Shown piece after piece: positions 8,671 through 61,656 of a DNA stretch of 64,000 bases. Source of the DNA: Prorocentrum cordatum (lineage: Eukaryota); assembly GCA_963575745.1 (NCBI GenBank), contig CAUYUJ010000295.1, positions 1-64,000 on the forward strand. Direction: 5' to 3'. Under the pieces are notes generated by a model. The model did not search any database and was not told where the DNA came from. It saw nothing but the letters and a program-made list of their open reading frames with translations. How positions within the stretch are numbered: the stretch's first letter is position 1; each line of letters opens with the position of its first letter. The position numbers and the translations under genes were made by a program.

Positions 8671-11633
8671 TCTCAGAGGGGCAACAATAGGGGGACTGGC
8701 ACAGGGGGGATGCATCGACCTGGAATCGGCGATACATCGCCGATAGATCGGCGATAGGGCTCCGATCGTGAGTCCGCACCTTCCTGGGCAGGTCGGGGCT
8801 ATCGGGCCCCTATCGGCGATCCATGGGCGATTGGGGGTCGATGCATCCCCTCCCTGTGCCTATTCCCCCCCTGATCGTTGCCCCTGACTCTCTCTCTCTC
8901 TCTCTGTCGCCGAGCCCAGCGGCGCGCGGCGCTCGCCGGCGGCGCGCCGGTGGCGGCCGGCGACGGGGCCTGCGGGCCGCCCGTCGTCGTGGTGGGAGCG
9001 CGGCAGGGCAGACCGTCGGGACGGCGGCGACGCCGACGACGACGCCGCCGAGGACGACGACGCCCGGAAGGACCCTTGTGCTGCATCCTCGGGGGACCTT
9101 GTCTGTTCCGTCGGGGCCCTATCCGCGTCGAATCCGTGTCGACTCAATCGATAGAGGCGGATCGGCGATCGAAATACATCGGGTCAGCGGAAATCGGCAG
9201 CCGAGTCGGGCAAGTCGAATCGGAGGAAATCGACAGGCTAGAATGTCTCCACCAAGGAAACGGAGCCCAAATCGGAACCAAAGCCGAACCGAATCGGCAT
9301 CGGAAGCCATCGAAATCGAATCGAATCGAATCAGAGGAATCGAAACGAGCCCGGGGGGGGGGCACGCGGACCCGAGCGTCGAAAGATCCGCAGATCGAGC
9401 GCCGAAGGATCGCTGGACTCATCTTTTTCCCGTCGGCGGAGGGGGCACTGCCCGAGCAACGAGGGAGCATGGTGGAACCCGCACGCACCCGCCGAGACCC
9501 GTCGGGCGGGGTTGGTTTGGTACGTCGGGAAGTCCCCCCGCCCCCGGGGGCTCCGTCCGTCGGGAAGCAAGAGTCGGGGGCCAATACAAGCGCTAAGTCG
9601 GGCGTGTCTCCCTACAGGGGGATTTTCGAGGAAAAATGAAAAAAATACTGACAGAATGCTCCCACATGAAGAAAAATACAGCAAAAACAAATCCTCAGAC
9701 TCTTTTCTTTTTAAAGCAATTTTTGAATATTCCTCCTGTAGAGGGACGGGCCCGCCTTCATGCAAGCGGGAGTCAACCAGAACGCCGGATCTTGGGGCGC
9801 ACTGGCCCAGGTCTGGGTGCATGATCCTGCAAGATCCTGCAAGGCCTGACTGACACGGGTTTGGATTGACCCGGGTCAGAAGATCCCCGAATCCGATGTG
9901 ATCGATCGCCCCCGGCCCGATTCGCTTCGACTCTGTGCGCCCTCAGGACGCGCAAGGGTCACTGAGGTGTCGGAATCGACCCGAACTCCTGACGTCATGA
10001 TGTTTGCATGACACGACCCCGCAGAGATCCCAACCCATTCCCGGGACCAGCTTTTCGTCCTGAGTCGTTTTTAACGGTCCCGAGTCCAAGTAAAGGGCCC
10101 CCCACGGGCCGAAAATAGCGAGAAACCTCCCGTCGTGAATTTTTGTTTTCATGACTCGAGGGGCGGATCGAGCCTGGGGCGATGGTTATCGACCGAGGCC
10201 GATTTTGTCCGGATAAGCAGGGGCCGACCGTCCCGGCATTCGTATTGACCTACCACGAACTATTCAAAGAACGGAGCCAATGTTCTTGGAACGTTAGCCC
10301 GATGTGTTACAACAAGACGGCAGACCAGACCTTAGACAACATTCCCTGGTGGGCCAACTGATGGGCCAGCCAAGACGCCTCGCCACTGCTTGACAAAAGG
10401 ATTGGTGGGGTCGGACTGACCTGGGTCAATCCAGACCATGTCAGCCGGGCCTTGCAGGATCCTGTAAGACCCCGCAGGATCCTGCACCCAAACCCAGGTT
10501 CAAATCGGGCGTGTCCCCCTACAGGGGGATCGTCGACGAAAAATAAAAGAATGCTCCCAAATGGTCAACAAATGCGCAAAAAATAATCCCCATATTATGT
10601 TTTTGACTATTTTTGAATATTCCTCCTGTAGAAGGGCGGGCCCGACTTAAACCCAGCGCAGTGCGACCCTGGCCCTCCAGGATCCTGCAGGACCTGGCGC
10701 TCTGGCGGACCCCCGTGGCCGCAAGGCTGCCTTCCTCGCCGTGGCGCGCCGCTGTCGGGGCCCGGGGGGGGGGGGGGGCGCCGGACGATCCTGCCCACTT
10801 CGGGCGCCTCCCATCGCCCCTCGGAACCTCCCTTGGGGGCCCCTCGTGCGACTCGCGGGGCGCCCAAAAGGCCTCCGAGATAATGGCTCCCAGGGTGGCC
10901 GGAGAGGCCCCCGAGAGGGTCCCAGGAATTCTTTCCGAGGGCGCAGCATGAACTGGAGCAAACAACCACATGTTTGTTTCTCCACTTATTCTTCTTCTTC
11001 TTCTTCTTCTTCTTCTTCTTCTTCTTCTTCATCGTCTATACTTCGCCACGGCCGCCCACCGCGCTCTGGCCCTGCGCGCCTGGCTGCTGCTGCCCGCCGG
11101 CAGCTCATCGTCGAAATCTTCGGCGTCTGAGCGTCCCTCCTTCCTCTCGGCCTCCCCACTCCTTCTTGCACGCCGGCCAATTCGCGAATTAGTGCCCCCA
11201 CCGAGCTGTTCGCTGGAGCGGATTTCGCCGCCTCGCCGCTGATGAGAAAATGTCTCCACTTCTTCTTTCCAGCTTCATCCACGGTCTTCGACCCCGGTGG
11301 GCACCGCTTGGGTTGTTCGGCGATCTGGGGGGTCCTCCGGGGCCGTCCTGGACCCCTGTCACGCCCTGTGTTATTTACATGTTCAACTTCTCTCACCATG
11401 ACGCCCGCCGTGTGTGAACGGGCTTCGCACCTGGCTACATGTTCACAGATGCGACCACGTTCCAAACATGTGGAGCGGCAGCATCTGCCCCCTCTGCAGC
11501 GTTGAAGCGAACAGCTCTAGCCAAGATAGGGGTCACCAACTGCATCAAGACAAAAACCTGCTCTCCCGAAAAGGACATGCTGCATGACCTGGTGCGGGCC
11601 GCACCTCACGCGCCGGACGACGCACCGCTCTGG

Positions 11634-11835
11634 TAAGGGAAGAAGCAACGGCATAAATATTAAAACAAATCGGAGGTCCGCGCGGATTCCTCGGATCCGC
11701 GCTGTGGCCCCCTGGCGGCGCCTTTGGCGCCGCCCCTGGCGCGCTCCGCGCGCCATGGAGGGGGGTCCAGCGCGGATCCGACAAACCCGTGCTAACCTCA
11801 GAATTTGTATGTTTATGCCATTTTTTGTTCCCCTA
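11634..11835. mobile_element. MITE family A (~200 bp, ~75-bp TIRs, 5-bp TSD). Copies: 4583-4691 (internally deleted), ~7740-7885 (partial), 11634-11835, 14455-14652, 20811-21013, 25155-25848 (expanded), ~26791-26995, 48764-48963, 49121-49325, 58886-59084, 59573-59771
   Basis: Ends T(C/A)GGGGAAC...GTTCCCC(G/T)A with 'tccgcgcgga' arms. Perfect TSDs: ACACC (20806/21014), GCATC (49116/49326), GATCC (58881/59085). Near-perfect: TCTGG/TCTTG, TAGAA/TCGAA. Confidence 0.9.
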
Positions 11836-13894: not shown

Positions 13895-14452
13895 TCAGTC
13901 GCTGCTGCTCGCATCGTCACTGCTGCTCCCACCTTCGCCGTCTTCGAAGCTTTCGTGAATCGTCTCGCTCTTATCTCTTGCCATCGTGGGATTAGCGTCG
14001 TTGAGCGCATTCCAGATCTCATTCTGAGTATTCACCCTGACCATGTCCATGGCAATCTCTTCCTGAGTCTCCTTTTCATTCGCATCAAACTTCTTCTTTG
14101 GCACACGTGAGACGCCCATGCGCTGCGACGTGCCCAACACTGCGAACACGGCAGCCAAGCTGAGATAGCCAATCATGAAGGCCGCCTGCGAGACGCCGAA
14201 TGCACCCTTAGTGCCTGTGAAATTCTGAAACGTAAGATCCGCACGAGGTTGGTGGACAATACCGAAGGTCGACAAGAACGCTCCCACAAGCGCCCAAATC
14301 GAACACTGCATGAAATTGGCATTGATGGCGAAGACGACCATTGCTGTCAGGATGATCGCAGATAGCAGGGAGCCATAGCCGAGAGCCATCAGCGAGGGAC
14401 TCCCTGCCCCTGGAGGCATCTGAGAGTTCGCCCAGTCTGCGATGGCTGGCAT
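13895..14452 (-). CDS. NCS2/AzgA-related nucleobase permease, last exon (exon 9)
   Basis: MPAIADWANS...GYGSLLSAIILTAMVVF...LSTFGIVH...GYLSLAAVF then an acidic tail and stop; several TM helices; taag| acceptor. Confidence 0.9.
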   Translation of the reverse strand: MPAIADWANSQMPPGAGSPSLMALGYGSLLSAIILTAMVVFAINANFMQCSIWALVGAFLSTFGIVHQPRADLTFQNFTGTKGAFGVSQAAFMIGYLSLAAVFAVLGTSQRMGVSRVPKKKFDANEKETQEEIAMDMVRVNTQNEIWNALNDANPTMARDKSETIHESFEDGEGGSSSDDASSSD

Positions 14453-14655
14453 CTTAGGGGAACGGAACATTACATAAACAGAGAACTCGGAGCTCCGCGC
14501 GGATTCCTTGGATCCGCGCCGTTCCCCCCTCCCTGGCGAGCGGAGCGCGCCCGGGGCGGCGCCGGAGGCGCCGCCAGGGGGGTCCAGCGCGGATCCGAGA
14601 AATCCGCGCGGACCTCCGAGTTTGTATGTTGATGTCATTGTTCGTTCCCCGACAT

Positions 14656-14844
14656 GAGTCCGATGATAGCTGCAGGGAGGTGCCGATTCTCGATGTTGCC
14701 GAACGTGTCCTGGTTGATCGCGAGCCCAATGAACAGCACGATCGGCGCGATGGCATACGGAGGGACGAGCGCGGCCACCATCGAGAACTGCCCGGTAACG
14801 CACATGAAGCAGAACAGCGCGCAGTTGAAGAAAGAATAACTCGC
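14656..14844 (-). CDS. Permease exon 8 (both boundaries ambiguous by a few nt)
   Basis: ASYSFFNCALFCFMCVTG...APIVLFIGLAINQDTF...HLPAAIIGL matches the family motifs GYS..NG, PIL..IGL.I..Q.F and HAPA..GL.P. Confidence 0.88.
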
Positions 14845-15615
14845 TGGCCCAATGGGCCAGAGGCGTGCTGAGATCTCTGGTTGTGTTGCTCCCATCGCGC
14901 TTAAGGACCATCTCCCAGAAATAATTTCGAGCACCCAGAAAAGTATCGAAACTGTGTCGGACGAGTATCGCCTCCCAGGGCCAGACACGTGGAAACCTTC
15001 AAGTTTTGGTACTTCCTTGGTGCGCGAAATCCCACCAGTCCTCTGGGCGTAGGTGGTCTAGGGAGCTTCCTCTTCCAATTCCCTTCTTCCCCGTCGGGGA
15101 GGGATTTATCACTGTTCCCTATTCATAAACACCCCCTCCCCCACCTGGCCTGCAGCCAACCCAGAATCATGCGGGCCCCCCCCCCCCAACATCCCTGCCA
15201 ACAACACAATACAAAATGCACATTGCGGGGCCCACCCTGCCAACACCCTCCACAATCCCTGTCCACAAAAATATACGAAGTGCACTTTGCAGCAAAATCT
15301 GGGCAGTGCGCTGGCGCCCTTGGAGCACGTGGTGTTGTTTTGCTGACAGGGATGGCGGGGCACCCCTAATGAAACCACTTTGTGCAGGACCACCCTCCGT
15401 GTCAAAAACAATGCAAAGTGCACGTTGCAACAACGTCGTGGGCGTTGTGCTGGCCAACCGCGATCACTTTGTATTGTTTTTGACCGGGACGGCGGTGGTG
15501 CTCGCATGATGATGTTTGCTATGCGCAAGCCCAGAACAATGCTGGCGCCCCCCACGTCAGCACCTGGACTATGCGGACGGGGGGGCATCACGTTTTTTTG
15601 TTGTTTTGTTTTTGT

Positions 15616-15651
<36 letters not shown>

Positions 15652-17525
15652 CTTACAAGGATGGCGCACCACCCGCATGTGGAGCCCGCGGCGAGCGTCG
15701 CGCCCCTGGCGTCCGCTTTGGTTCCCAATGGCTGTCCATCCAGTGGCGACCCCTGGCTATGCCGAGACTCGGATGCCACTTATATGGCGGGGGGGCGGGT
15801 GGGAGTGAGCTAAACGGCTTGCGTGCGGAGAGGGTGTCTTGACTCCTCCCCCCACCCCCCTCCCCTGGACCTGGACGGGGGGGCCGCGACGCGTTGGAGC
15901 GTCCAAAACGGTTCCGGCGAGAAAACGGATCTCATTTGTTCAAAAACAGTTGTGACCCCATTTTGGCATCTTGGGGGGGCAATGCTAATTAAAACTCTCC
16001 CTTTTTTTTGATCGATGTCCTCCAAGATGGCCCCAAGAGCGCTCCCAAGGCTCTCAGAAGCGCTTCAGCAGGGCCCCAAGAGGCGCATGGGAGGCCCCAG
16101 GAGGCCCCAAGAGGCGCCCGAGAGGCCTCCAAGAGGCTCCCAAGAGACCCCCAATGGGCACGAAGCATCCAAGACCCTCCAAGAGGCCTCCGGGTCAGCC
16201 AAGGGGCCCCCAGGACGCTCCAAGAGGCTCCTCTGCGTGCTGCCCACTTCCCTGATCGAGGCAACTCCTCCGGGCATCGTTTCTGGATGGGCTGGTGGAG
16301 TTACTTTTTGAATCGCGGCCCGCAAGGAGAAGTCCAGAGGGCGGTGTGACCGAGGCTGGGGCACAGCGACAGATAATTGGCGCGACATCGCGCAGAGTGC
16401 ACCTGCAGATAATTAAAAAGAGACGACCACGGTTCAACCCGCGGGTGGAAGCGAACCGAACGCGAGCCCAGCCGCTGAGCATGTGTCGGCAGAAGAGGGC
16501 AACCGCGGTGGGGAGAGCAGAAGCCCTGGTGCCACCACGCGGACCCCGAAAGCCGCTGAGCGTGTGCCAGCAGAAAAGGGCCAGGCGGGAACAGGTCGGA
16601 CCCGCAGGTGGAGTACCGACTGCCAGGAGGCGCGAGGAGAGATGGACAGCAAAACCTAGGGGGAAGCGTGGCAAATCCACTCACTTGACTCCCAGTGCGT
16701 GGGCCAGCGTGTACGCGGGCCACACACAAGCCACCGGGGGGGTTCGTGCCACAGAGCATACTTTTCACGGCCCGCACTCCCAGTCAATGCCTGGGAAAGG
16801 TTATTCAGCCGTCCACAGGGGAGGCCCGCGGTGGCCGCAGGTGCCATGACGGTGTGGTGCCTCCGCTCCCAGGAGGCACAAACTGTGGCCAGAGCCAACA
16901 TCTAGCTAGACGGCAGGGCGGTGCCTTTGGCCGTCGACCCTGTCCGCCGCGGGCCGGCAAGCGGCCAAACTATGAGTCCAAAAATGCCGACCGCACTGTC
17001 TACACGCCCATGTGTATGGGGGTCAGAAGTGGTAGTCGCTCCTGCGAGCGACGACGTGGAAGTCACTGCACGTTGCCGACTCCAAAGGATGGGGCACATG
17101 GAGGGGCCGCGTGGTGGAGTTACGCGAAGCGTCTAGAATTATTTCTGGTGGTCATAACTAAAATAGGTTGGAATCTCATACTCTCTGGTAGCGGATTTGC
17201 AGCTCTTCTAATTCGCGCGTTCCTCTTGGGCTGCCTTGTGGCATTATTGGGGGCCTCCTGGGCCGCGTCGGGCCGTCGCGCGCCCGAAAAGGCGGTGGCG
17301 CTCAAATGCTTCAGACACCCTGGGAACATAAGTACTTATTGGCTCTCTGGGTCTTCTTCGGGGTTCGTTTGAAGCGCCGTTTGGGTGTTCTAGAAGCCTC
17401 CTTCATGGACATCTTGCGGCGCTCTTGGACTGTCTCGGACCCGCGTGGCCTCGCTGCAGGCTTCGATGAAGGCTCATGGAACTCCTGGACGCCCAGACAA
17501 AAAAAAAAACATCCCTGACCCAGGG

Positions 17526-17704
17526 TCGGGGGCGTTCAAGAGGGTGGGGGCGCAAATCATGGCGGGCGGCACGTGCGCGGTCAAAGGGGGGGGGGGGCCG
17601 GGGTATTGAAATAAGAAAAAGTGCCGTGAAATGTGGGGCGACATCATGGCTCCCGCCATGAGATCCCCCACCCTAATCATCACCCCCCTCTTGGCCGCCC
17701 CCGA
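17526..17704. mobile_element. MITE family B (~180-200 bp); other copies 22096-22288 and 24878-25075
   Basis: TIR tcgggggcggtcaagagggg ... cccctcttgaccgcccccga; 5-bp flanks aatgc/aatac and tcttt/ttttt (no clear TSD at this copy). Confidence 0.85.
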
Positions 17705-18217
17705 CGCAAGGGTGGCCGGGCTGCGCCCAGGCTGCGCCCGGGACACTTTTCGCCCAGGGGACCCAGGCGGCCCAAGAGGCCCCTCTTTCTTCCCAAGGTG
17801 GCTCGAGACGTCTCAAGTTCTGTGCGTGTGAAACCATCACAGCTGCATTTTGCGGCGGTATTCGCCGTTCCTGCAGCCAAGGGTCTGACATGCCCCTCCA
17901 TGTTCGGCTGCCAGCACACGGCCCTGTCGTCTCTGTCCAAGGACTCCGCAAAGTCGTCTGGGAGAGGCTCTATCGCCCCCGAGCGTAGCATCTCCGTGCA
18001 TGCGTTGGGGGGGGGGCATCCCGAGGAGGTGACGAGTGCAGCGGAAGCGCTGCCGGAAGTCACGTTGGCACGCTGGGCAAACGCCGTCCGCCTTGACGTA
18101 CCTCTAGGTCGGGCATGTCCCCCCACAGGGGGATTTGGGACGAAAAATCAAAACAACAAAAATATGCTAACGGAGTTCCTCACATAAAGATGTTACGGGG
18201 TTCCATTGCTTCTTGAC

Positions 18218-19428
18218 TGCGCTCTGGTGGGGCCTCCCTGGAGGGGTGGGAGGGGCACGAAACCTGATGAATAATATGGTGTGCGAATACCCTGCCCGCT
18301 CTGGTGGGGCCTCCCTGGAGGGGTGGGAGGGGCACGAAACCTGATAAATAATATGGTGTACGGATACCCTGCCCGCTCTGGTGGGGCCTCCCTGGAGGGG
18401 TGGGAGGGGCACGACACCTGATAAATAACATGGTGTGCGAATACCCTGCCCGCTCTGGTGGGGCCTCCCTGGAGGGGCGGGAACGGCACGAAACCTAATA
18501 ATAAAATATGGCGTGCGAATACCCTGCCCGCTCTGGCGGGGCCTCCCTGGAGTGGCGGGAGGGGCACGAAACCTGATAAATAATATGGTGTGCGAATGCC
18601 CTGCCCGCTCTGGTGGGGCCTCCCTGGAGGGGTGGGAGGGGCATGAAACCTGATAAATCATATGGTGTGCGAATACCCTGCCCGCTCTGGCGGGGCCTCC
18701 CTGGAATGTTGGGAGGGGCGCGAAACCTGATAAATAACATGGTGTGCGGATACCCTGCCCGCTCTGGTGGGGCCTCCCTGGAGGGGTGGAGGGGCACGAA
18801 ACCTGATAAATAATATGGTGTGCGAATACCCTGCCCGCTCTGGTGGGGCCTCCCTGGAGGGGTGGGAGGGGCACGAAACCTGATAAATAACATGGTGTGC
18901 GAATACCCTGCTCGCTCAGGCGGGGCCTCCCTGGAGGGGTGGGAGGGGCACGAAACCTGATAAATAACATGGTGTGCGAATACCTTGCTTGCTCAGGCTG
19001 GGCCTCCCTGGAGGGGTGGGAGAGGCACGAAAACTTATAAATAACATGGTGTGCGAATACCCTGCTCGCTCAGGCGGGGCCTCCCTGGAGGGGTGGGAGG
19101 GGCACGATACCTGATAAATAACATGGTGTGCGAATACCCTGCCCGCTCTGGTGGAGCCTCCCTGGAGGGGCGGGAGGGGCACGAAACCTGATAAATAGCA
19201 TGGTGTGCGAATACCCTGCTCGCTCAGGCGGGGCCCCTCTGGAGGGGTGGGAGGGGCACGAAACCTGATAAATAACATGGTGTGCGAATACCCTGCTCGC
19301 TCAGGCGGGGCCTCCCTGGAGGGGTGGGAGGGGCACGAAACCTGATGTATAAATAATACCCTGCCCGCTCAGGCGGGGCCTCCCTGGAGGGGTGGGAGGG
19401 GCACGAAACCTGATAAATAACATGGTGT
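18218..19428. repeat. 77-bp minisatellite, about 15.7 copies, intronic
   Basis: Unit gaataccctgcccgctctggtggggcctccctggaggggtgggaggggcacgaaacctgataaataacatggtgtgc; unit starts at 18285, 18362, 18439. Confidence 0.95.
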
Positions 19429-20365
19429 GAGGAAAGGCATGGTATGGTATGGGATGATGGATGCATGGTATGGTATGGTAAGGTATGGTATGGAGTGGCA
19501 TGGTATTGGTATGGTACGATACAGTATGGGATGGTGGAGGAAGCGGGAGGAGGAGGAGGAGGAGGAGGAGGAGGAGGAGGAGAGGATGTTCTGGGAAAAC
19601 AAGAACCCCACTCAGGACGTGGGGAAAAAAACTACCCCGAACATGCTCAAACCTAGCCAAACAAATTATCAAAGCATCGTCCCCCTATTATTTGTTGGAC
19701 TATGTTGGGGTCTTCCTGCTGTAGAGAGACAGGCCGGACTTAAAACGTGCCGCCTCGCTTCGTCCCCGACGCCGTGAGCGGCGACGAGCCGGTGCTGCGC
19801 GGGGCCCCTCACGAGAGGCGCCGCGAGGCTCTCGAGAGAGCCGCCGCGAGGGGGGCCCCCGAGGCCGCCGGCAGGCCCCCGAGAGGCCCCGAGGGGCCGT
19901 TGGTACAGGGCACGAGGAGGAAGCGCGGTGACACAACACAATCCGAGAACTCCGTTGAGCACGCGCATGTGCTCGCAGCACATGCAAGCACGATTCACAG
20001 CACAAAAACGACGGGAACGTCCAGAAAACGAGAGGCCCCGAGCGGCCCCGAGCAGCGGATCCCCCGAGAGGCCCCCAGGATCTGTCTCTTCTCAGCGCAG
20101 CACCGTCTCGCAACCAGAAAGCCCCCGGAGATCCCCAGGAATGCGGCCAAGCCGCCCCCCAGGAGGCCTCCCAGAAGACCTCACGCCTCTCAAAGGGGCG
20201 TCTTGCCCACGACCCGCTTTGGCCCCCAGGAGTGCCCCAACAAGCCATCGAGAGGCCTCCTCCTCCTCCCCCTCCTCTTCCTGCTTATCGCTCGCCACTG
20301 GCACGCCACCAGAGCAGCAGTGATGCAGTATGGGCCGGCGGGATGAACGAAGCGATTGAATATAT

Positions 20366-20809
20366 TGTCCCTCCCGCGCGCTTGAGTGGCTTGTGGCTGC
20401 AGAAAACGCACGTGCCGAAAGGGGACCCAAACAAAGCGGACACCATCGTCGTGCATCCATCGACGACCAGCGTCTCCTTCACGCTGTACGGGTCACCCGC
20501 CTCGTGCGCATTGTACACAGACACCAATGTGTTGATAGCGCCGACAAAGGCTACAGGCAGAATGACCGAAATGTTTTCCAGTGCCACCTCTGGTATCTCA
20601 AAGAAGGCCTGCGTATCCAAAAGCCTAGGCGTATAGAAACGGAAGATCGAGGCGGCATTCTTGACCGACTCCCAAGTGCCGCCATCCTTGTCGACCTTGT
20701 CCTCTGGCCACCCTGAGCTGAACACCCATCCCATGAAGGCGCCAGCCAACATGATCATGACTGCGTTTGGAATCGGGTAGAACTTGACCCCGACGAAGTA
20801 ACCCAACAC
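20366..20809 (-). CDS. Permease exon 7
   Basis: VLGYFVGVKFYPIP...SVYNAHEAGDPYSVKETLVVDGCTTMVSALFGSPFGTCVFCSHKPLKRAGGT contains the hallmark A..AGD.Y...DG...LFGSPF; ctag|GTG acceptor. Confidence 0.93.
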
Positions 20810-21017
20810 CTAGAACACCAAATAACTAAGGAAAATTACAATTCTGGAGACCCGCGCGGATTTCTCGGACCGATGCTGGGCCCACATCTCCAGAGCGCGC
20901 CGGGGGTGGCGCCAAAGGCCCCGCGAGGGGTGCGGAGAGAAGGCCAGCGCTGGCGCAAGAAGTCCACGCGGGCCTCCAAATGATCTACGTTTGTACAGTG
21001 TCTCCGTTCCCGAACAC

Positions 21018-21140
21018 CGCAGTGGCCAGTGGCACAAAGCCCAAGTGCCCCGCGGCGAAGACCTTCATCAGCTGGGCGATGCCCAAGTGCGTCAGGCCGA
21101 CGCCAGCTAATGCGATCAGCAGCGCTGGTTTCGGGGCCAC
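21018..21140 (-). CDS. Permease exon 6
   Basis: 123 nt, VAPKPALLIALAGVGLTHLGIAQLMKVFAAGHLGFVPLATA (P..ALL..LAG motif); AG and GT boundaries. Confidence 0.92.
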
Positions 21141-21344
21141 CTTCATGTGTTGTTGTGCGCGTGGGTCTGTAAGAACATATACATCACTTCATAGGCAATT
21201 GTATGCAAGTGTGTATGCTTCTATCTATATTCTCAAATGCGCTTACGTATGTGTGTGGGCATATGCGTGCAGTTGCTAACCTGTGCAGTTATGATGTTTG
21301 CAGATCTTGATACCCAACCTCACAAGAACACATGTTGGAAGAAC

Positions 21345-21419
21345 CTTCATGATGGCCGGGCCAGCGAACCCGACCAAGGCAGCAATGAATCCAGCGGCAA
21401 GGTTCGCCACGGTGGTCAC
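21345..21419 (-). CDS. Permease exon 5
   Basis: 75 nt, VTTVANLAAGFIAALVGFAGPAIMK; gaag|GTG and AAG|gt boundaries. Confidence 0.9.
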
Positions 21420-23931
21420 CTTCGTCGCGGAAGCGCGCAAAAGAAAGACTCAGAATGAGACGCATCTCTGCTGGCACGACGGATCAGGGTCATGAAATGA
21501 GGGTAGCGGGTCCACGACAACTGGGCTTGCATCGGACTTCTTTGTCATTTTGAATGGCTTTCGGCGGACCCGAGTGAAACCCCTGATCTTCCTAGTCGCC
21601 TTCAAAATCAGTAGTTTGCTGAACCAAAGTCTCAACATTGTTTCCGACGCGACATTTCGTCATCAATAGATTGTAATGCGCCCTGAACTTGGACACGTTG
21701 GCCTGCACATTCCGAACTTCGCCCATCCCATTCCGCAATGCCGCCCCATTCTGGCCAGCTTGCCTGCCCCCCAATCGCGACCCCACAGTCACCCTGACTC
21801 CCTGGTGGCACTGCTCACTGTGACAGCACGTGCTAGACTCGTGTTGTCTGACTTCGCTAGCATAACCACTGATCAGATCCGCCACCGTACCGCAGGCTCG
21901 GAATGGACAAGTCCCTCTGAGTTCTCCATGTTGGATTAAGTAAAAAGCCTCTTGGGGCGCGCACGGGCGCTCCGTGTTTTCTCCCGCGTGGCCATTCTCC
22001 CCGAGGCCTCGGGACGGACGGCGTGCCTGTTCAGTTCCCACTTTTGGGGATTGTTACTGTTGGTCTTCCTTGTCTGATGCTCCGCTTGATTCTTTTCGGG
22101 GGCGGTCAAGAGGGGGGCGTCTCAGAGGGGGGGGTGCAAATCATGGCCGGCGGCACGTGCGCGGCCCAAGGAGGGGCCAGGGACGTAATGCAATGAGAAG
22201 AGCCGCCATGAAATCTGGGGACATATCATGGCCCACGCCATGATATCCACCCCCCCTTAGTCATCACCCCCCTCGTTGCCGCCCCCAATTTTTAATCGAA
22301 GAGCCCCTCCCGGGGCTCGCACCCTGTTTTTTAGAAAGGGAATTAATTGGCTGGCCACGTGGCCCCCGAACCACAACAACGTATTCGGCCTCGCGCACCC
22401 GCGCAGGGCCTCCTCACAGTGTGTGCAAGGATCGCGCTCTCGCGCGGGACTTCCTCGCCGCCTACTCACAAAGCGAAACCATGACACTCGGGCATGACGC
22501 TCTCGCCCTGGACTTCCTGACGATCTCCTTGGGATCGCGCTATCGCTCGAGACTGCCTAGCGGGTCATATAAGACTGACGCTTCAGCGACCCGCCCGCTC
22601 GACCTGGCCGCTTGGGCCCGCCCGCCCGCCAAGGTCCTCCCGCCCGACCCGCCCGTCTGGTTGTGCCACTGGTTTTCATGCTCCCATCCCCTGAGAATCT
22701 CGCTCATGTTCCGTTCTGCTCCGTCCCCCGTGTCCCGTCCTTCCATCCTCCCTCTCGTCCCCTGGGGCTGCACCAACTACACAGAGCAGGTAAGGTAGGT
22801 AACCCCCCCCCCAAAGGGACACGATCGAAGACGAAGAGGGCGGGTATCGAAGGTTTGGGATATACGTTCTGAATGGCATGCGAGCAAATAAAAAACAAGC
22901 ATTCTTAAATTGATTGCTGTTGCTGAATTCTCATGTCGAAGGTCAGTGAATGTGCTCCTCCTGGGGTTCGCACCCTGTTTTCTTAGAGGGGAAGGTCTTG
23001 TGCATCAGACTGCGCCCCCGCCACCGTTGTGCAACAGCAGCGGCTCCCGCCTGATACGCCCTGACAATTTAATCCAAGTCGCGCTCTCGCGCAGGACTTG
23101 CTGGCAGTGGACATGGATACACTCAGCCTACTCAGGGCCCGAACATATCTAGATGCACCGCCTGCAGGCCCCCCAGGCGCATGGGCAGGTCCCCGCGTTG
23201 GAATGGTGGCCTTCCCGAAATCAGCATTTGGTCGGGCGGGTCCCCCTACGGGCGGTTTTTTGGGTGAAAACTGCAAACTAGTCCAGCAATAATCCAAAAT
23301 ATAACAATATACTAGAAATATCGTCCCCATACTATTTTGACATGTTTTTGCATATACCTCCTGTAGAAAGACAGGCCCGACTTACGATCAGCAACCCCTG
23401 GGCCGCAACGAGCCATGTGCCATGCCGGGCTGACTGGGCGGGGTACAGACAGAGCTCCACGACGGCACGGGGGCGGGAGGGATGCCGCGGCCACGGCGAG
23501 GGCGCCGGGATCCGCTTGTGGCGGACGCTGCCGCGGCAGTCTTCGACACGACCGGGACCCTCCTCCAGGAACAGGCGCGGCTGGCTGGGGTCCTGCCCAC
23601 CCAGACCCCCGACGTCATGACTTTTCCATGACGCGACCCCCAGAGGTCTGGACCCATTCTCCGGGACCGGCTTCTCATCCCGAGTCGGTTTTTGGCGGTC
23701 CTGAGGCCCGTGAAGGGCCCCCAGAGAGCGAAAGTAGCGAAAAACCTTACGTCGTGACTTTTTCATGACTCGAGGGGGTCCTGCCGACCTGGGCGCTGGC
23801 CCCCGACACCGCGCGCAGCGTCGTCACCCTGGAGCGATGGAGGGTTCTGCCGATGGCGCCGGATCGCTCGACGTCGGCCGGCCGACCCAAGGACCACGCG
23901 CGGCGCTCCACCTGGAACGCCCGCGCTGGGG

Positions 23932-24100
23932 CCAGGTCGGGCACGTCCCCCCTGCAGGCGGATTTTTGGACGGCAAGTGTTTCAAACGTCACACATGCAA
24001 AAATAGCACAAATATGTATGATAAAAACAAAAAGCCGCCCCAGACCATGTTTTTAACGATCTTGGACTGCTCCTCCTGTAGAGGGGCGTGCCCGACTCAA
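23932..24100. mobile_element. MITE family C (hAT-like, ~130-170 bp, 8-bp TSD). Copies ~9593-9760, 10501-10650, 18105 (partial), 19610-19743, 23227-23385, 23932-24100, 24266-24432, 45765-45918, 46881-47041, 50510-50660, 55822-55952, 58452-58610, 58693-58845, 60450-60613, 63590-63750
   Basis: TIR ttaagtcgggcgtgtccccctacagg ... cctgtagagggacaggcccgacttaa; TSDs cgctgggg/cgctgggg, gatcaggg/gatcaggg, aatcagca/gatcagca, ggcaagga/ggcaaggt. Confidence 0.9.
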
Positions 24101-24568
24101 CGCTGGGGTCGCCGCCGCCTCGACACATCACGGCACGAGCCTGCTGCTCCCTGGGGACAGATGCATGCCTCCGCCCTGATTGCGCCCCACTCTGGACCGC
24201 CCGCCCGAGGCGAGAGATAAGTATCTCCCCCCCCCGGCATGCGGAGGATTTCGCACGGATTGAACTCAGACCGGGTATGCCATCCTACAGGCGGATTCTG
24301 GAAGGAAACAGCAAACACGGTCAAACCAGATTCAGAGATCTGCAAGAAGTAGTCGAAACATCGTCCTCTGACTATTTTGTTGACTATCTTTGAATGTTCC
24401 TCCTGTCGAGGGACATGCTCGACCCAAGGTTAAACATGATGAACGATGAATCAGAATCTAAATCACCCAGAGGAATCATAAGATTGGATCTTACGCTTCA
24501 ATTCCCGTCTGTGGCACTGCAAACGGGAAGCCATCATGTTTCATATTTGGACCACCCTTCTTCGTCGC

Positions 24569-24876
24569 CTTCCAAGCGTAATTGATGCCTTCCTCCCATT
24601 CCATGCCAGCCTCCTTAGCATCGCGTGCAGCCACGGCCATGATGTTGTAGACGAACGCAAATGCTGCAGCAGTGTTGACGCCGTACGGCATGCACATGTG
24701 GTCGCTCCGGCCGTCTACCCTCATCATGCGAATCGCCATCCAGGCATAGTAAAAATTACCGAATATCATGGTGATGCACATGCCATTGAGGATCCTGCCG
24801 TAGATGAGGCCCGAAATGAAGTCGTTCATCTGCGCCGTATCCACGCCTTCGTCCCCCTTCCAGGGTGATGACAATG
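24569..24876 (-). CDS. Permease exon 4
   Basis: ...GRILNGMCITMIFGNFYYAWMAIRMMRVDGRSDHMCMPYGVNTAAAFAFVY...YAWK contains the family motif GN..Y...A......GR.D...PYG.NT; GC donor AAG|gc. Confidence 0.92.
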
Positions 24877-25082
24877 CTCGGGGGCTGCCAAGATGGGGGC
24901 GTCCAAGATGGGAGGGCGCAAATCATGGCCAGCGGCATGTGCGCGGCCCAGAGGGGTGGCCAGGGACGTATTGAACTATATAAGAGAAGGCGCCATGAAA
25001 TCTGGGGAGATATCATGGGACCCGCCATGAAATCGACCTTCCCTTAGTCATCAGCCCCCTCTTGACCGCCCCCGAAATACAC

Positions 25083-25148
25083 CACGCATCCCCCCCACGA
25101 CTGCGACGATCGTACCCGTGATCTGAAAGAATAAGTTCAGGCCACAGT
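25083..25148 (-). CDS. Permease exon 3 (boundaries ambiguous by about 5 nt)
   Basis: DCGLNLFFQITGTIVAVVGGMR is the first TM helix following the GDxD motif; bounded on both sides by MITE termini. Confidence 0.78.
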
Positions 25149-25848
25149 CGATGATCGAGGAAGAAACACACGCGTGCGAACAGAACAACTGCCGGAAATC
25201 CGCGCGCGGTTTTCTCCCGGTTCGGCGCTGGACCCCCCCTTTCTCTGGCGCGGTGCTAGAGCGCCAGGGGCGGCGCCCAAGTTGGACGCAAATAAATGGG
25301 GTGGGCGAGAAAAAGACGATTCCAGAAACCCTGAACCCAAAAACGTTTTCATCTCTTTTGGGCGCATTTGTTACTTCCGCCACCTTCCACCGCCCTTCCG
25401 CCGGCTTCCGCCAGCGGAGGCGGCCTCGTTTCACTTCGGCCACCCTTCCGCCGCCCTTCCGCGGCGGAAGAGATGATAACTCCTTCGATCCTCGCAGGCA
25501 AGGCGATTTTTGGAACGCCTCAGCTGGTGGAGGGGGGGAAGAAAGGGGCGACTCGGGCCCTCAAGGCCCTCTTCTGGGCCCCAGCAGGCCTCTCCAAGGG
25601 CCCATTGTAGGGCCGCGCTTCGGCAGCCCTCGCCGTCCCCTCATTTATCGCCCCACCCATTCGCGCGCCCTCCAACCCAGGAGCCGCCCAAGGGGGTCCT
25701 GCGCCGACCCAAGCACTCCGCGCGGACTCCTCCTCCTCCTCCTCCTCCTCCTCCTCCTCCTCCTCCTCCTCCTCCTCCTCCTCTCCCCCTCGTTTCCCCT
25801 CCCCCTCCTCCCCCTCCCTGTCTGCTTCTGCAGGTGTTTCCTCTTCGA

Positions 25849-25890
25849 GATGTCGCCTACCGCCGGGGCGACGGGGAGGAGCCCGCGGAC
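25849..25890 (-). CDS. Permease exon 2
   Basis: caag|GTC acceptor; VRGLLPVAPAVGDI. Joined to exon 3 it gives GDID, the conserved N-terminal motif. Ends exactly at a family-A terminus. Confidence 0.7.
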
Positions 25891-26267
25891 CTTGCAGCAT
25901 CGAATTGGCATCGAAGCGGCAAAATCGGATCGGACCGACATGTGCGTCGGATCGGGCTGCATCGGCACGGAGTCGGAATCGAATCGGATCGGCCACGCCT
26001 GTTTTCCACCACCACCACCACCATAAGTTGGAGGGGGGAAGGAGGTGGAGGATGAGGAGGAAGAAGAGGAGGACCCCCTCCCCCCTCAAACTTATGGTGG
26101 TGGTGGTGGTGATGGAAAATAGGCACAACAGGATCGGCCACGCGGCCAAGCCACCTTGCACGGCAACGCCAGGCAACCATCGGGCCGCATCGGAGTGTCG
26201 GCACATCGGGATCGGATCGAATCGGGCCAGCCACCATCGACATCGAATTGTGTCGATTGGACCGAAA

Positions 26268-26457
26268 CCCAGACCCCCGACGTCATGTTTTTTTCCATGA
26301 CGCGAACCCAATAAATACGCATGGACCCATTTCCAGGAACTGGTTTTTCATCCTGAGTCGTTGTTTGACGGTCACGAAACCAGGTAAGGGTACCCAGAGG
26401 CCGAAAATAGCGAAACGCCTTCCGTCGTGACTTTTTCATGACTCGAGGGGGTATGGG
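26268..26457. mobile_element. MITE family E (CCC...GGG termini, 2-bp TSD, CMC/EnSpm-like). Copies ~5702-6076 (interrupted), ~9981-10165, ~23601-23783, 26268-26457, 45371-45552, 61022-61209
   Basis: cccagacccccgacgtcatga ... tcatgactcgagggggtctggg; flanks AA/AA, AA/AA, AC/AC. Confidence 0.8.
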
Positions 26458-26707
26458 AATAAACCCTGCCTTGGCACGCTTGGACTTCTTCGGCGGCTCG
26501 CCGGCCATAACCGGAATCTCGCAGACGGTCGGGCGGTGCCCCTTCGGCCGTAAGAAGCCCCCGCTGCGCGCACTCGGGCAGCCTGGATCCAAAAAAATCT
26601 GCGCACGCGCGCGCGGGAGTGAGCGATCGACGTCGGCGTCGCAGGCGGCACAGTGAAGATAACAACTAAAGGAAAACGGCCAGCGAAGTACAACCGAAGA
26701 GCTTGAC

Positions 26708-26734
26708 GAGCACGCGCGGGGGCTCTTGTCGCAT
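26708..26734 (-). CDS. Putative permease first coding exon (MRQEPPRVL)
   Basis: gacgccATG context; in-phase CTC|gt donor; UTR-like sequence upstream. Tentative. Confidence 0.45.
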
Positions 26735-27121
26735 GGCGTCGACAAAGAGCAAGTGCAACAGCTGTGGTTTCAGAACAGCTGTGGCTGAGGTCGAGGAACA
26801 CCAGAGTCCACCACATGAGCATGAACTTCCCGAGGTCCGCGCGGATCTCCTGGACCAGTGCGAGACCCCCCTGGCGGCGTCTCCCGCGCCGCGACTGGCG
26901 CGCTCAGCGCGCTAGGGAAGGGGTCCAGCACAGATCCAAGATATCAGCGCGGATCTCCAACAATTCATGTTTATGTAACTGTTGTTCCGCCCCCGCTCTT
27001 CTTCTCCCCCCCCTCCCCCTCAGAGGCACAACGTTTGCTCTCCGTTGCGCGCGTGCTTGTTCAGGCCACTGCGCTGTAGCCTCGCCCGTTTACGGGCCAA
27101 CCCATGTGGTTTGATCGGGCC

Positions 27122-48405: not shown

Positions 48406-50709
48406 TAACCCACACTCACCCCCGCCAGGAACCCCACTCCCGACCTGGTGATCCAGGAGGTCCTGGGGGTGGCGGCCTTTTTGGCCCCCAGGACCTGGCG
48501 GAAGTGCGGGTGGGTTGCGCTGCCCTGAGTCGGCCTCCCTCCTCGTTCTTTCCCTACCGATGCCGATCGCACCGAATGACGATTGAGAAGACCTTTTTTC
48601 GGGCGCGCGCCCCCAGAACCCCTCGAGGCCGGTCCCCTGCGCGCGCCGCGCGCCAAACCCCACAGGCGCGCCGCGGCGGCACTGCCGCCCCCGAAGGGCC
48701 ACTGGCACTGCGGGCGGCCCGAAGCAGGCAGCGGTGCGGTGGCCGGGAGCCTTCTGCGTAGAAGCAGGGACCAAACAAGGACAGAAACATAAAAACTCGC
48801 AGGTCCGCCCGGACATCTTGGATCGGCGCTGGAGCCCCCTGGCGGCGCCTCCGGTGCCGCCCCTTGCGCGCTCCGCGCGCCAAGGAGGGGGGATCCAGCG
48901 CCGATCCAAGAAATCCGCGCGGACCTTCGAGTTGTGATGTGTATGTCACGGTTTGTTCCTCGATCGAAGGGCCGACTGAGGACTCACGACGGCGCTATGG
49001 AGGCCACCCAAAAGGGAATGGAGAAGATGGGGTCGGATGATCGCGCCGCATCGCTGATGCCTCCGTGACGCTGGGACGGAGATAACCAAGCTCCAGCTCG
49101 TGCCGCATTGCCGACGCATCTAGAGAAGACAAATTCACAGAAACATTAACTTTCGGAGGTCTACGAGGTTCTCGTAGATCGGTGCTGGACCACACTTTAC
49201 AGCGCGCGGAGCGCACCAGGGGCGGCGCCGGAGGCGCCGCCAGGGTGGCCCAACGCCGATCCAAGACCCTCGCACGGACCTCCAAAAGGTTAGTTATGCT
49301 CATGTATGTCGATGTTCTTCTGCGAGCATCGGCGATTCAAAGGCGAAGGGAGGAGCGAATAGCCCAGGGGCGGGCCTTACACGCATCCGCCGGGGAGCCT
49401 CGCCGAAGACGTGAACCACCGGCGCCCCTGGATGCGCATGTGCTGTCCCCCCCGGGCTGTTCGCCCCCCATCGTCGCCTCCGAGCGATGCGGCGTGATGG
49501 GCCGACCCCATCTGCTCTGGCCTGCGACTGAAGGGCAACGGTACTCCCGCTCCGGGGGGGGGGGAACGCCGACCTGGAAGCAACGATGCCTCGCGAGTGG
49601 ATTGGCGATGGGCCCCCGAGAGCGAACGTCCGCACGCTCCTGGGCGGGGCGGGCCATCGGGCTTCCATCCGCGTCACGTGGGCACATGGGCGGCTGGGGG
49701 CCGATGCTCAGTATCCCCCTGAACCCGTCCCCCCTCAATAGAAGCTTCGCGCATCGGGTCCCAACAGATAGGGCATGACAGTGTCGGAGGATCGCGCCGC
49801 ATCGCCGCCGCATCGCCGCGATGCACCAACGACAGAACGGTGACGTCGGCGACGCATCGGCGCAGTCGGCGCGGAGAAAATCGGACCCCACGTTGAGCCG
49901 CATCGCCGATGCATCGGCCATACGGCGCGAGTATCCGATTCCACCTGTTCCGACCCCATCTTGGAGGCCCCACTTAGCCCGTACCTTCACCTCCCTCCCC
50001 CTCCCTATACGCCACTCAGGACGCTTCTAACCAAATTGGAAACCACGTTATTCCTAATATGTGTATATAGTTATATATATATATATGTATGTGAACAGAC
50101 ACAAATGCATATCTCTCTATATGTGTATAAAACTATTTATGTACATCTGTACACATACATATGTATATATATGTATGTTTACACATATCTTTAGTACATA
50201 CATGTACATATACATGTGTATATATATATATATATATATGTAGGCAACCCACCTCGGCATCCAATTCATTTTCCATGTAAGTACCCCTCCCCCTTATCAA
50301 TTGATCAACTACCGATGTGTTTCAAGTAATGCTGCCCTGCCAATTGCGAGTCATAGCCCGGGTCTCCAGCGGCCGTTCGGGACGAGCATGTCCAGAATGT
50401 CCGCGCTGACTCTACAACAATTTTGCCCTACTGCGGCGCCGCGAGCTCCGCGCTGCCCATGATCCCCCTGACGCTGCGCCAAGGTCCGCGCCTGCGAGAC
50501 CGGCAGCCAGACTTCGGGCGTGTCCCCTAAAGGCGGATTTCTGATAAACAACATTTGAAACATATTCAAACATATTCACAAAACTAATAGAAACATCGCC
50601 CCAAAACTATTTTTGTTACTATGTTTGAACGTTCCTCCTGTAGAGGGACAGGCCCGACGCCGCGGCGCTCCGCTCAGCCGCTGCGCCTCGGCGGCCGCGA
50701 CCCAGGCTC

Positions 50710-59000: not shown

Positions 59001-61656
59001 GCCGCCGGGGGGGCCCAGCGCGGATCCTGGAAATCCGCGCGGAGCGCGAACCGTTTCATGTTCATGGCGTTTTTTCTTCTTCGAGATCCGCCGCGGGGGG
59101 TTTACGACACATTACACAGAGGGCGTGTTTTGTTGCTGTTCGGACGTTTGCGAGTAGGCACTTTGGGAGCAGCGGAACGCGCTCGGTGAACAGCGAGTGG
59201 TGGGCTTGCTCTCCACCGCCACCACCATCAGAGGGGGAGGGGGTCCTCCTCCTCCTCCTCCTCCTCCTCCTCCTCCTCCTGCTCCTGCTCCTCCTCCTCC
59301 TCCTCCTCCTCAACTTACGGTTGTGGTGGTGGGAAACAAACCCATCAGAGAGAGCCGCACCGAGAGCGGGTAGGCGCTCCCAGCCACGCCTGGAGCCTCG
59401 GCCTCGAACAGGCTCCCGCCTGCAGGGCCCCAGGCCCGACCACCGGAGTCCCACGCCGTGAGCCCGCAGCGGTCTTTCGCTCGGCACGCTTTGACTGTAA
59501 ACATAAACAAAGACATACAAACTCGGCAACTGGAGACATGAACATAAGCACAAACATAAGCAGAAACGGTCATCGGGGAACGAAAAAGGACATAAACGTA
59601 GAAACTTGGAGGTCCGCGCGGACTTCTCGGATCGGCGCTGAGGCCTCCTGGCGACGCCTCCGGCGCCGCCCCTGGCGCGCTCCGCGCGCCAGGGAGGGGG
59701 GTCCAGCGCCGATCCGAAGAATCCGCGCGGACCTCCGAGTTCTTATGTTTATGTCATTCCTCGTTCCCCAATGACCGCAGGCAGCCGACTGCGACGCAAT
59801 CCCCGTCGCCTAGTGTTCGGGTTATGCAGTCGGCCCGTACCAGAAGGATGCGCGATACGGATGCAGGGGCCTTGGACGCCCATTTCGAAGCTTTTCGCGC
59901 GGGGCGCGGCCAACGAAAGTGGCCAAGGATGGGCCGAGGAGGTAAAAATGCAATGGCACCCTTGGGAAAATCGCTATCCTTACTGTGCGGGTCGACTGTA
60001 ACTCGGGTCCCCGGCGGCCGTTCGGGATGGTTCGGACAAGCCCGGAACGCCCTCGGCGAGGCGCGGCTGCCGGAAAGCATCGCGAGGTTGGGAAGCCGCC
60101 GAGAACCTGAAAACGTGCAACCGAATCGAATCTTCCGAACGCAGCCGACTGCGACGCAGCCGAACCGACTGAATCGCTCACGCCCCTAACCCGCAGCGGG
60201 CCCCGCAAACGGTAAGGTCGCGTTTATGCCATGTGCGAAAACGTTGAGAAACACTGCTCATCAAAACGGGGCAAAACAATTGCTTCAGAATTGGAGCCCG
60301 AACCAGAACTAAAAACAAAAACGGTTGTGGAACCGGGGAATAGAAACGGCTCCGGAACCAACAACAAATCAGCAAAACGGAACCTGCAAAAATCTGCTTC
60401 CTAAAACATCTATCCCTGGACCTCTCCTGGGATGCGTTCTGTCTAGAATTACGACTGACATGTCCTCCTACGGGCGGATTTTGGAGGAACAAGAAAAAAC
60501 TGTCAACATAAATATTCAAAAATAGTAATATAAAAAATTCCCCAAAATCGTGCCCAGACTATTTTTTTACTATTTGTGCATATTCCTCCTGTAGAGGGAC
60601 ACGCCCGACTTACGCCTAGAATTTCGAGGCGGATCCAGGCGTGGCCACGAGAGCGCTCCAGGACGATCAAGAGCATCTAGAGAGCGAACCTCGAACCTCG
60701 AACCCCTGAACCCCTGAACCCGCCCTCGTCCGACGAAAACGCACGACCGAACCAAACCTTCCGAACGCGGCCGACGGCCACGCAACCGAGCCGACCGAAG
60801 CGCGCACGCGCACGACCCACCATCCGGAGGCGAGCGAGGGGGGGAAGTGACACGGAGAAGGCCTTCCCAGAAGGCGGCGGGACTTCTCAGAAGCCCTCGC
60901 GCCTTCCGAGAAGGTCTTCTGCGTCTTCGGGAAAGGCTGAGAAAACTTCTCAGAAGGCCGGGGGATTTCCGAGCCTTCCGAGAAGGCCTGCCCCTTCTCA
61001 CTTCCCCCCCGAGCTCGCCACCCCAGACCCCCGACGTCATGACCTTTCCATGATGCGACCCCCAGAGATCCGGACCCATTCCCCGGGACCGGTTTTTCCT
61101 CCTGAGTCTTTCTCTGACGGTCGCGAGGCCCGGTGAGGGCCCGCCTAGGCCGAAGATTGCGAAAAACCTCTCGCGCCGCGATTGTTTTCACAGCCCGAGG
61201 GGGTCTGGGACCGCTCCTCCTGCTCCTCCTCCTGCTCCTGCTCCTCCTCCTCCTCCTCCTCCTCCTCCTCCTGCTCCTCTTCCTCCTGCTCCTGCTCCTC
61301 CTCCTCCTCCTCCTCCTCCTCCTCCTCCTCCTCCTCTCCTCCTCCTGCTCCTCCTCCTGCTCCTCCTGCTCCTCCTCTCCTCCTCCTCCTCCTCCTCCTC
61401 CTCCTCCTGCTCCTCCTCCTCCTCCTGCTCCTGCTCCTGCTCCTCCTCCTCCTCCTCCCCTCTCCTCCTGCTCCTCGTCCTCCTCCTCCTCCTGCTCCTG
61501 CACCTGCTCCTGCTCCCTCCTCTCCTCCTCCTCCGCTCCTCTCCTGCTCCTGCTCCTCTCCTGCTCCTCCTCCTCCTCCTCCTCCTCCTCCTCCTCCTCC
61601 TCCTCCTCCTCCTCCTCCTCCCCCTCCTCCTCCTCGTGGCGCATCGGCCGGCGGTC

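Follow-up and report, generated by a model that had tools for sequence, protein, structure and literature searches.

Introduction

In Amoebophrya A25 and A120, the account of introns in Farhat et al. 2021 (PMC7789003) describes RNA-supported introner elements that carry neither GT-AG nor any fixed dinucleotide at their borders, and it also reports the loss of U1 small nuclear RNA for Amoebophrya. In Polarella glacialis and Symbiodinium, the introners set out in the Roy et al. preprint (10.1101/2020.10.14.339549) are transposons with terminal inverted repeats (TIRs) and duplications of 3, 4, 5 or 8 nt. Here, we analyzed 64,000 nt of the Prorocentrum cordatum genome (assembly GCA_963575745.1, contig CAUYUJ010000295.1, positions 1 to 64,000; hereafter the window), whose only recognisable gene, a predicted purine permease gene, contains introns from three copies of one TIR element family, family A (A1, A2 and A3), and one copy of another, family B (B1). 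In the strict sense used for Micromonas, Aureococcus and Polarella, an introner family forms introns in many unrelated genes, and its copies leave the mRNA as the element plus one duplication copy; such removal was seen in RNA for A2, A3 and B1 and is predicted from homology for A1. We consider it probable that two families of miniature inverted-repeat transposable elements (MITEs) inserted into the coding sequence of this expressed permease gene and are removed as the element plus one duplication copy, partly by non-canonical splicing.

The P. cordatum elements belong with the Amoebophrya-type non-canonical introners, in a new lineage. As far as the intron sections on Amoebophrya describe them, both sets have non-canonical, RNA-supported borders (here B1 and A3, in three runs), inverted repeats (8-20 nt and hairpin-capable in Amoebophrya; 15 nt in A3, 23 nt in B1 and more than 50 nt in A1) and direct repeats over the borders (3-5 nt there, 3-6 nt exact here), together with MITE-like repetition, no transposase gene of their own and canonical introns alongside. 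The hosts differ, as P. cordatum is a free-living photosynthetic core dinoflagellate and Amoebophrya a parasitic syndinian. In addition, the P. cordatum elements sort into clear families whose termini are conserved and whose register is fixed at 5 nt; for Amoebophrya, those sections portray variable repeats and no family-specific inverted-repeat motifs. The case presented here is one gene, against a genome-wide count.

As set out in the preprint, Polarella and Symbiodinium introners are spliced as the element plus one duplication, and A2 and a further intron of the permease gene, intron 5, behave alike; the duplication or the element there supplies a 5′ G[T/C/A] and a 3′ AG, whereas B1 and A3 permit no such reading. 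In P. cordatum itself, the introner section of Dougan et al. 2023 (PMC10666404) reports 8-20-nt inverted repeats and 3-5-nt direct repeats near the ends of 2.4% of the introns annotated; the figure comes from searching annotated introns for a pattern, and the section describes no families, 5-nt register or non-canonical removal. The nonconventional introns of euglenids, a lineage unrelated to P. cordatum, are described (in the relevant part of PMC11282704) as having non-canonical borders, TIRs joining the ends, junction repeats that resemble duplications and a probable descent from MITEs, all of which are common to the P. cordatum elements. By contrast, pairing in euglenids is by short motifs a few bases inside the ends, while the stems here begin at element base 1 and span 15 to more than 50 nt. 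The euglenid introns are also marked by excision as circular RNA, later than the conventional introns. In their passages on dinoflagellates, a review and a survey of introns derived from transposons, both from 2024, place non-canonical introners in Amoebophrya only. A full-text literature search, with subscription-only papers (including the final Roy et al. 2023) outside its scope, yielded no account of introns of this type in Prorocentrum or any other core dinoflagellate.

Results

RNA joints across the permease gene

The permease gene lies on the minus strand at 13895..26599 and has nine exons and eight introns, in a window of 57-70% GC (2-kb bins). A first-pass annotation of the window, made from the letters alone, had proposed the same number of introns, of which six were recovered as RNA joints, one through loose contig ends in all four runs used and the last, at A1, through homology. 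RNA contigs from these four runs of four studies (X1, X3, X10 and X15) were placed on 20200-27100, a stretch chosen to avoid the 1.2-kb satellite of intron 7 and leaving A1 outside; X1, X3 and X15 are culture-derived, and X10 is a metatranscriptome, recorded as polyA RNA. Exon borders, as listed, are movable by the length of each boundary repeat.

Exon 1: 26599-26469, minus strand; RNA joints and loose ends
Exon 2: 25889-25849, minus strand, 41 nt; RNA joints
Exon 3: 25149-25076, minus strand; RNA joints
Exon 4: 24872-24568, minus strand; RNA joints and loose ends
Exon 5: 21418-21343, minus strand; RNA joints and loose ends
Exon 6: 21138-21013, minus strand; RNA joints
Exon 7: 20804-20359, minus strand; RNA joints and loose ends
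Exon 8: 14837-14656, minus strand; loose ends on the 5′ side, homology on the A1 side
Exon 9: 14452-13895, minus strand; homology at the A1 border

Intron 1: 25890..26468, minus strand, 579 nt; GC-AG, 5-nt boundary repeat; joint 25889>26469 in X1, X10 and X15
Intron 2 (A3): 25150-25848, minus strand, 699 nt removed; readings TC..TC, CT..AT, TC..CA, AT..TC and CA..AT; joint 25149>25849 in X1, X10 and X15, X3 having no contig there
Intron 3 (B1): 24873-25075, minus strand, 203 nt removed; readings TC..TT, TT..AT, TT..CA and AT..GC; joint 24872>25076 in X1, X10 and X15, X3 having no contig there
Intron 4: 21419..24567, minus strand, 3149 nt; GC-AG, 5-nt boundary repeat; contains the family B copy B_22.1k; joint 21418>24568 in X3, with 15-letter loose ends matching exon 5 in X1, X10 and X15
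Intron 5: 21139..21342, minus strand, 204 nt; GT-AG, 23-nt TIR and 9-nt direct repeat; joint 21138>21343 in all four runs
Intron 6 (A2): minus strand, 208 nt removed; GT..AG reading at shift 5; joint 20804>21013 in all four runs
Intron 7: 14838..20358, minus strand, 5521 nt; CA..TT, TC..GT or TT..AG; contains the family B copy B_17.5k and a 77-nt satellite
Intron 8 (A1): 14453-14655, minus strand, 203 nt; predicted removal, register ±3

In three of the four runs, B1 and A3 were removed as exactly the element plus 5 nt. A single 553-nt contig was wholly explained by exons 1 to 5 with the observed joints, leaving exactly 41 nt for exon 2, and loose ends before 20359 in all four runs matched 30 letters of 14808-14837, which places intron 7 at 14838-20358. 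Over B1 and the first part of A3, bin depth matched the exon share of the bin exactly, indicating that no retention contig was present, and because the adjoining introns in the same contigs read GC-AG or GT-AG, the data represent spliced RNA. The culture-derived contigs differed from the window exons by 0-1 letters per piece. In X10, three substitutions and one inserted base (24617, 24766, 26510 and 26557; one third-codon-position substitution, one Ile-to-Val change, and two further changes in or close to the start codon and in the 5′ untranslated region) left the joints unchanged, so a slightly different natural population splices the gene alike.

The first exon had previously been drawn at 26734; the RNA instead places exon 1 at 26469-26599. 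Its ATG is at 26508, and the reading frame ends with the stop codon at 13897-13895. Behind 26600, on the minus strand, a loose end in X15 bears what we take to be a likeness to the 3′ part of the dinoflagellate spliced leader, which would place a trans-splice acceptor behind 26600. This end seems to be one A short at the junction (26600-26601), which may reflect a variant or an alignment effect.

When the exons were joined with 203 nt removed at A1, they yielded an open reading frame (ORF) of 615 amino acids (aa) with 50-83% identity to homologues of 595-674 aa and no gap at any of the eight junctions against 14 homologues, wherever a homologue covers the junction. That taking out the element plus one duplication copy restores the frame, as first proposed from the sequence, is thus borne out by RNA for A2, A3 and B1, and by homology for A1 within the gapless ORF. 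On exon 7 alone the Pfam match to Xan_ur_permease was weak and below the cut-off, and some dinoflagellate homologues of exon 7 are named AGZA-family xanthine/uracil permeases by their source; judged by family similarity over its whole length, the host gene is an AzgA/NCS2-type purine permease. The intact 615-aa ORF, the gapless junctions and the transcripts identical to the exons lend indirect support to the earlier view that the gene is still under selection. Two metagenome scans for transcripts of relatives, sought for the ratio of nonsynonymous to synonymous substitution rates, found the patterns in 52 and 174 stretches, none of them encoding a relative.

Removal of an element together with one duplication copy has the exact look of an empty site, and the passages on gene content in PMC10666404 report extensive gene duplication in P. 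cordatum. The transcripts could accordingly come from an element-free second copy (an allele, a recent duplicate or a processed retrocopy), with the window copy silent and riddled with transposons, a reading that would undercut ours but that we judge improbable. The culture contigs are identical or nearly identical to the window exons, yet the flanking repeats and TIRs of A1, A3 and B1 are decayed, and this points to insertions that predate any exon divergence. The same contigs also skip the five other introns, so an element-free source would have to be a fully processed copy, itself made from mRNA spliced in this way. Furthermore, a search of exon 7 against 5.8 billion proteins gave, among the matches listed, one protein above 90% identity. 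This is P0001, named 'unnamed protein product [Prorocentrum cordatum]' and modelled on the present locus, so no element-free twin is annotated. The C-terminal 184 residues of P0001 equal those encoded by the last exon in the window, and the window is therefore the P0001 locus or a twin of that locus. Finally, the supposedly silent exons retain the 615-aa ORF.

Template switching leaves non-canonical joints flanked by short direct repeats across hairpins, and A1 forms a very stable hairpin, both of which would fit a different account: reverse transcriptase jumped between the direct repeats over the hairpin, or the assembly erred, and the real mRNA keeps the elements. We give this account almost no credence, as the same joints were found in runs of three studies with no retention contig, A3 spans 699 nt with a weak 15-nt terminal repeat, the exact repeat at B1 is just 3 nt, and intron 7 (5.5 kb, 2-nt repeat) is equally non-canonical. 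In addition, contigs built from 31-letter words cannot jump on 3-5-nt repeats, and with the elements retained the mRNA would fail to code for the conserved protein, whereas the ORF is in fact intact.

Canonical and non-canonical splice borders

For each intron, we listed all registers permitted by its boundary repeat, the slack being 3 nt at B1 and 4 nt at A3. No G[T/C/A]..AG reading occurred in any of the four registers of B1 or the five of A3, and none was found for intron 7, which has a 2-nt boundary repeat and no significant TIR (p = 0.14). Three introns of the gene (B1, A3 and intron 7) are thus cut at borders outside the dinoflagellate GT/GC/GA...AG rule, and removal of B1 and A3 without standard splice sites is directly supported by the RNA joints. 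At A2 the element and its duplication provide standard sites, which they fail to do at B1 and A3, and A2 is an ordinary GT-AG introner. The first-pass proposal that the host removes the elements even where no standard sites form therefore stands for B1 and A3 by RNA and, for A1, as a prediction from homology, and does not extend to A2, with its GT-AG reading.

The exact fit of A2 raises the prospect that all four elements are ordinary introners of the Polarella/Symbiodinium type, using G[T/C/A]-AG or nearby cryptic sites; such elements, including a class with 5-nt duplications, appear in the introner descriptions of the Roy et al. preprint (10.1101/2020.10.14.339549). A GT..AG pair in B1 would, if used, take out 206 nt in frame, and A1 has a GT..AG pair at its ends. 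The RNA joints refute this for B1, where 203 nt rather than 206 nt are removed, and for A3, where the 699 nt removed allow no canonical reading, and the pair at A1 would remove 201 nt, shifting the frame and ending the protein at 451 aa. We thus hold it highly unlikely that all four are ordinary introners, and favor non-canonical removal of B1 and A3 beside canonical removal of A2.

Two other modes of removal were considered and rejected. Excision by a bulge-helix-bulge endonuclease or by RNase III seems unlikely, as the 5-nt one-sided stem offset would fit neither geometry. A U12-type reading starts from the AT that B1, A3 and A1 each permit, but their 3′ ends differ (GC, TC and AG, respectively) and their 5′ contexts depart from the U12 consensus. 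Also counted against it is the description of alveolates without a minor spliceosome in the splicing section of Farhat et al. 2021 (PMC7789003).

Boundary repeats of 2-9 nt were present at all seven observed joints. Dinoflagellate introns with 2-9 nt identical at both borders, one copy of which is left in the mRNA, were reportedly noted by Mendez et al. in 2015, as a rule said to concern introns with recognisable splice sites rather than transposon families or non-canonical borders; repeats of this type are thus found at every joint seen here. Intron 5 is a fifth TIR intron (TIR p = 0.003), and BLAST for further copies of it within the window returned none. This intron appears to represent a third class of introns created by transposons, one that has a longer duplication.

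Element A1 and the public gene model

Across A1, the predicted 203-nt removal would give RHLPAAIIGL joined directly to MPAIADW, gapless as in 13 homologues. Having no G[T/C/A]..AG pair in the required register, A1 is probably removed non-canonically like B1 and A3. Eighteen runs from six studies contain 13895-14900, each with 0.58-0.68 of the sampled words, a share close to that of the exons, which indicates expression of the exons and RNA that lacks A1. Exon 9, searched against proteins, gave three matches at 61-83% identity, with no transcript-derived P. cordatum protein among them across the A1 junction.

The public model, P0001, goes from exon 1 to mid-exon 4, so that exons 2 and 3 are missing, and its residues 326-390 are exon 8 read out of frame, the frame being regained through the GT-AG pair of A1. 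It is therefore wrong at exactly the non-canonical introns. By its own description of gene prediction, the genome paper built the P. cordatum models with GT, GC and GA as the sole accepted donors (Dougan et al. 2023, PMC10666404), a limitation that accounts for the errors of P0001.

Separately, in a relative's 2267-nt metatranscriptome contig (proteins P0002 and P0023, 88% identical), the counterpart of exon 8 has a frame change, and about 20 nt are missing after ...YYSFFNCA, which splits the permease into two called proteins. This split may stem from an error in assembly or from imprecise intron removal in the relative.

Two MITE families with a shared 5-nt register

The four TIR elements coincide with introns where the first-pass annotation had put them, as confirmed by the sequence. 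The listed elements and full copies are as follows, with matches in the 5-nt flanking repeat given out of five.

A1: 14455..14652, family A hairpin MITE, 198 nt, in intron 8; TIR of more than 50 nt; flanks 3/5, exact direct repeat 3 nt
A2: 20811..21013, decayed family A copy, 203 nt, in intron 6; flanks 5/5 (ACACC), exact direct repeat 6 nt
A3: 25155..25848, family A ends and inner arms, 694 nt, in intron 2; flanks 4/5, exact direct repeat 4 nt
B1: 24878..25075, family B, 198 nt, in intron 3; 23-nt TIR; flanks 4/5, exact direct repeat 3 nt
Family A full copy: 11634..11835, outside the gene; flanks 4/5
Family A full copy: 48764..48963; flanks 4/5
Family A full copy: 59573..59771; flanks 2/5
B_17.5k, family B copy: 17526..17704, within intron 7; flanks 1/5
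B_22.1k, family B copy: 22096..22288, within intron 4; flanks 4/5

When the four elements were searched against the window by BLAST, ten more copies or fragments were recovered (eight of family A and two of family B), in agreement with the earlier count of about ten, for a total of 14 with element lengths of 179-203 nt (694 nt for A3 with its insert). The interior of A3 holds an unrelated insert of ~400 nt and a CTC microsatellite, and its arms match those of A1 by BLAST. Alignment of the copies also upheld the shared termini, T(C/A)GGGG...CCCC(G/T)A, which are present in both families in this or a decayed form. In 300 shuffles each, no TIR as good as that at the intron ends arose for A1, A2 or B1 (p = 0/300), and the weak 15-nt TIR of A3 was marginal (p ~0.04). 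A1 folds into a near-perfect hairpin with an RNA minimum free energy of -154.6 kcal/mol versus -92.7 for shuffles (z = -12.4), and the other elements gave z-scores of -5.4 (A3), -3.3 (A2) and -2.6 (B1).

In the 5-nt register, the flanks of the nine full copies, those with both ends placeable, matched at 31 of 45 positions (chance rate 0.26, p = 2.5e-9), while registers of 2-4, 6, 7, 9 and 10 nt were at chance and 8 nt was weakly raised (p = 0.012). This indicates that both families duplicate 5 bp of their target site, and that the duplication later decayed in the majority of copies; the exact direct repeats at all four permease elements lie within this register. The 5-bp direct repeat that the first-pass annotation had seen at every element is thus real as a register, and perfect at A2 alone. 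With TIRs, a duplication of fixed length and short, multi-copy, non-coding sequences, the A and B elements are MITEs. Their shared termini and shared 5-nt register are consistent with one kind of transposase moving both families. Pfam found no family in any of the 247 long ORFs of the window (143 + 104), including those overlying the elements, and hence neither a second gene nor a transposase is in view within it. A crude scan of the window for GC at third codon positions gave no further clear coding stretch, and an Rfam scan of the window gave no family.

A model for non-canonical removal

Taking these observations together, we propose that two short non-autonomous TIR families, with shared ends and a 5-bp duplication, would insert into coding sequence, and that the pre-mRNA would then lose exactly the element plus one duplication copy, giving back the uninterrupted coding sequence. 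At A2, the duplication and the element end would by chance supply GT and AG. At B1 and A3, where the RNA shows it, and presumably at A1, no G[T/C/A]..AG pair lies in register, so removal must use a non-canonical splicing mode. The TIRs may pair in the RNA and so set the two repeat copies side by side, with cutting and joining at equivalent positions of the two copies. One consistent register would have the intron start at element base 1 (UCG...) and end 5 nt beyond the last base.

Besides the possible element-free copy, several points weigh against this proposal. Removal of A1 is predicted from homology. The predicted structure of B1 is just modestly above shuffles (z = -2.6), and in the minimum-energy fold of A3 the outermost TIRs are unpaired with each other. 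Intron 7 shows that a hairpin is unneeded for non-canonical removal; as this intron is non-canonical without a significant TIR, the tolerance of odd borders seems to be a property of host splicing and not of the hairpins alone. Use as introns was seen in one gene; the other window copies fall within introns or in sequence that seems to be non-coding. As contigs drop rare forms, minor isoforms or partial retention may also exist.

That P. cordatum, and by implication core dinoflagellates, have a general mode of intron removal independent of GT/GC/GA-AG, its register set by the stem and the 5-nt duplication, we rate as an even call. If so, non-canonical introners would be an old dinoflagellate trait and not a peculiarity of the parasitic Amoebophrya, and thousands of canonical-only gene models would be wrong in the way P0001 is.

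The permease gene would bring non-canonical introns of transposon origin, described before in one parasitic lineage, into a free-living dinoflagellate that forms blooms and has a very large genome. How this mode of splicing arose and how it works could then be studied in an organism that grows in culture. Defined MITE families with a fixed 5-nt duplication and excision register offer clean test substrates, and this single gene pairs a canonical sibling, A2, with the non-canonical A3 and B1. Annotation limited to G[T/C/A]-AG will mis-model such genes, P0001 being a concrete case.

Other repeats in the window

A third repeat family, of ~190 nt and with inverted ends bearing CCCCCGA...CATGA motifs, has at least six copies in the window at 70-79% identity, two of them within permease introns 1 and 4.

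Third-family copy: 26267-26460
Third-family copy: 23599-23779
Third-family copy: 45369-45555
Third-family copy: 61022-61210
Third-family copy: 9979-10163
Third-family copy: 5703-6076

Intron 7 contains, at 18220-19429, the 77-nt satellite in 15.8 copies that are 90% alike, followed by ATGGT-type and GGA microsatellites. In intron 1, a near-perfect palindrome with CAC/GTG repeats lies at 25997-26124, its arms of 27-36 nt being 93-94% complementary, and X15 contigs reach this palindrome area with loose ends.

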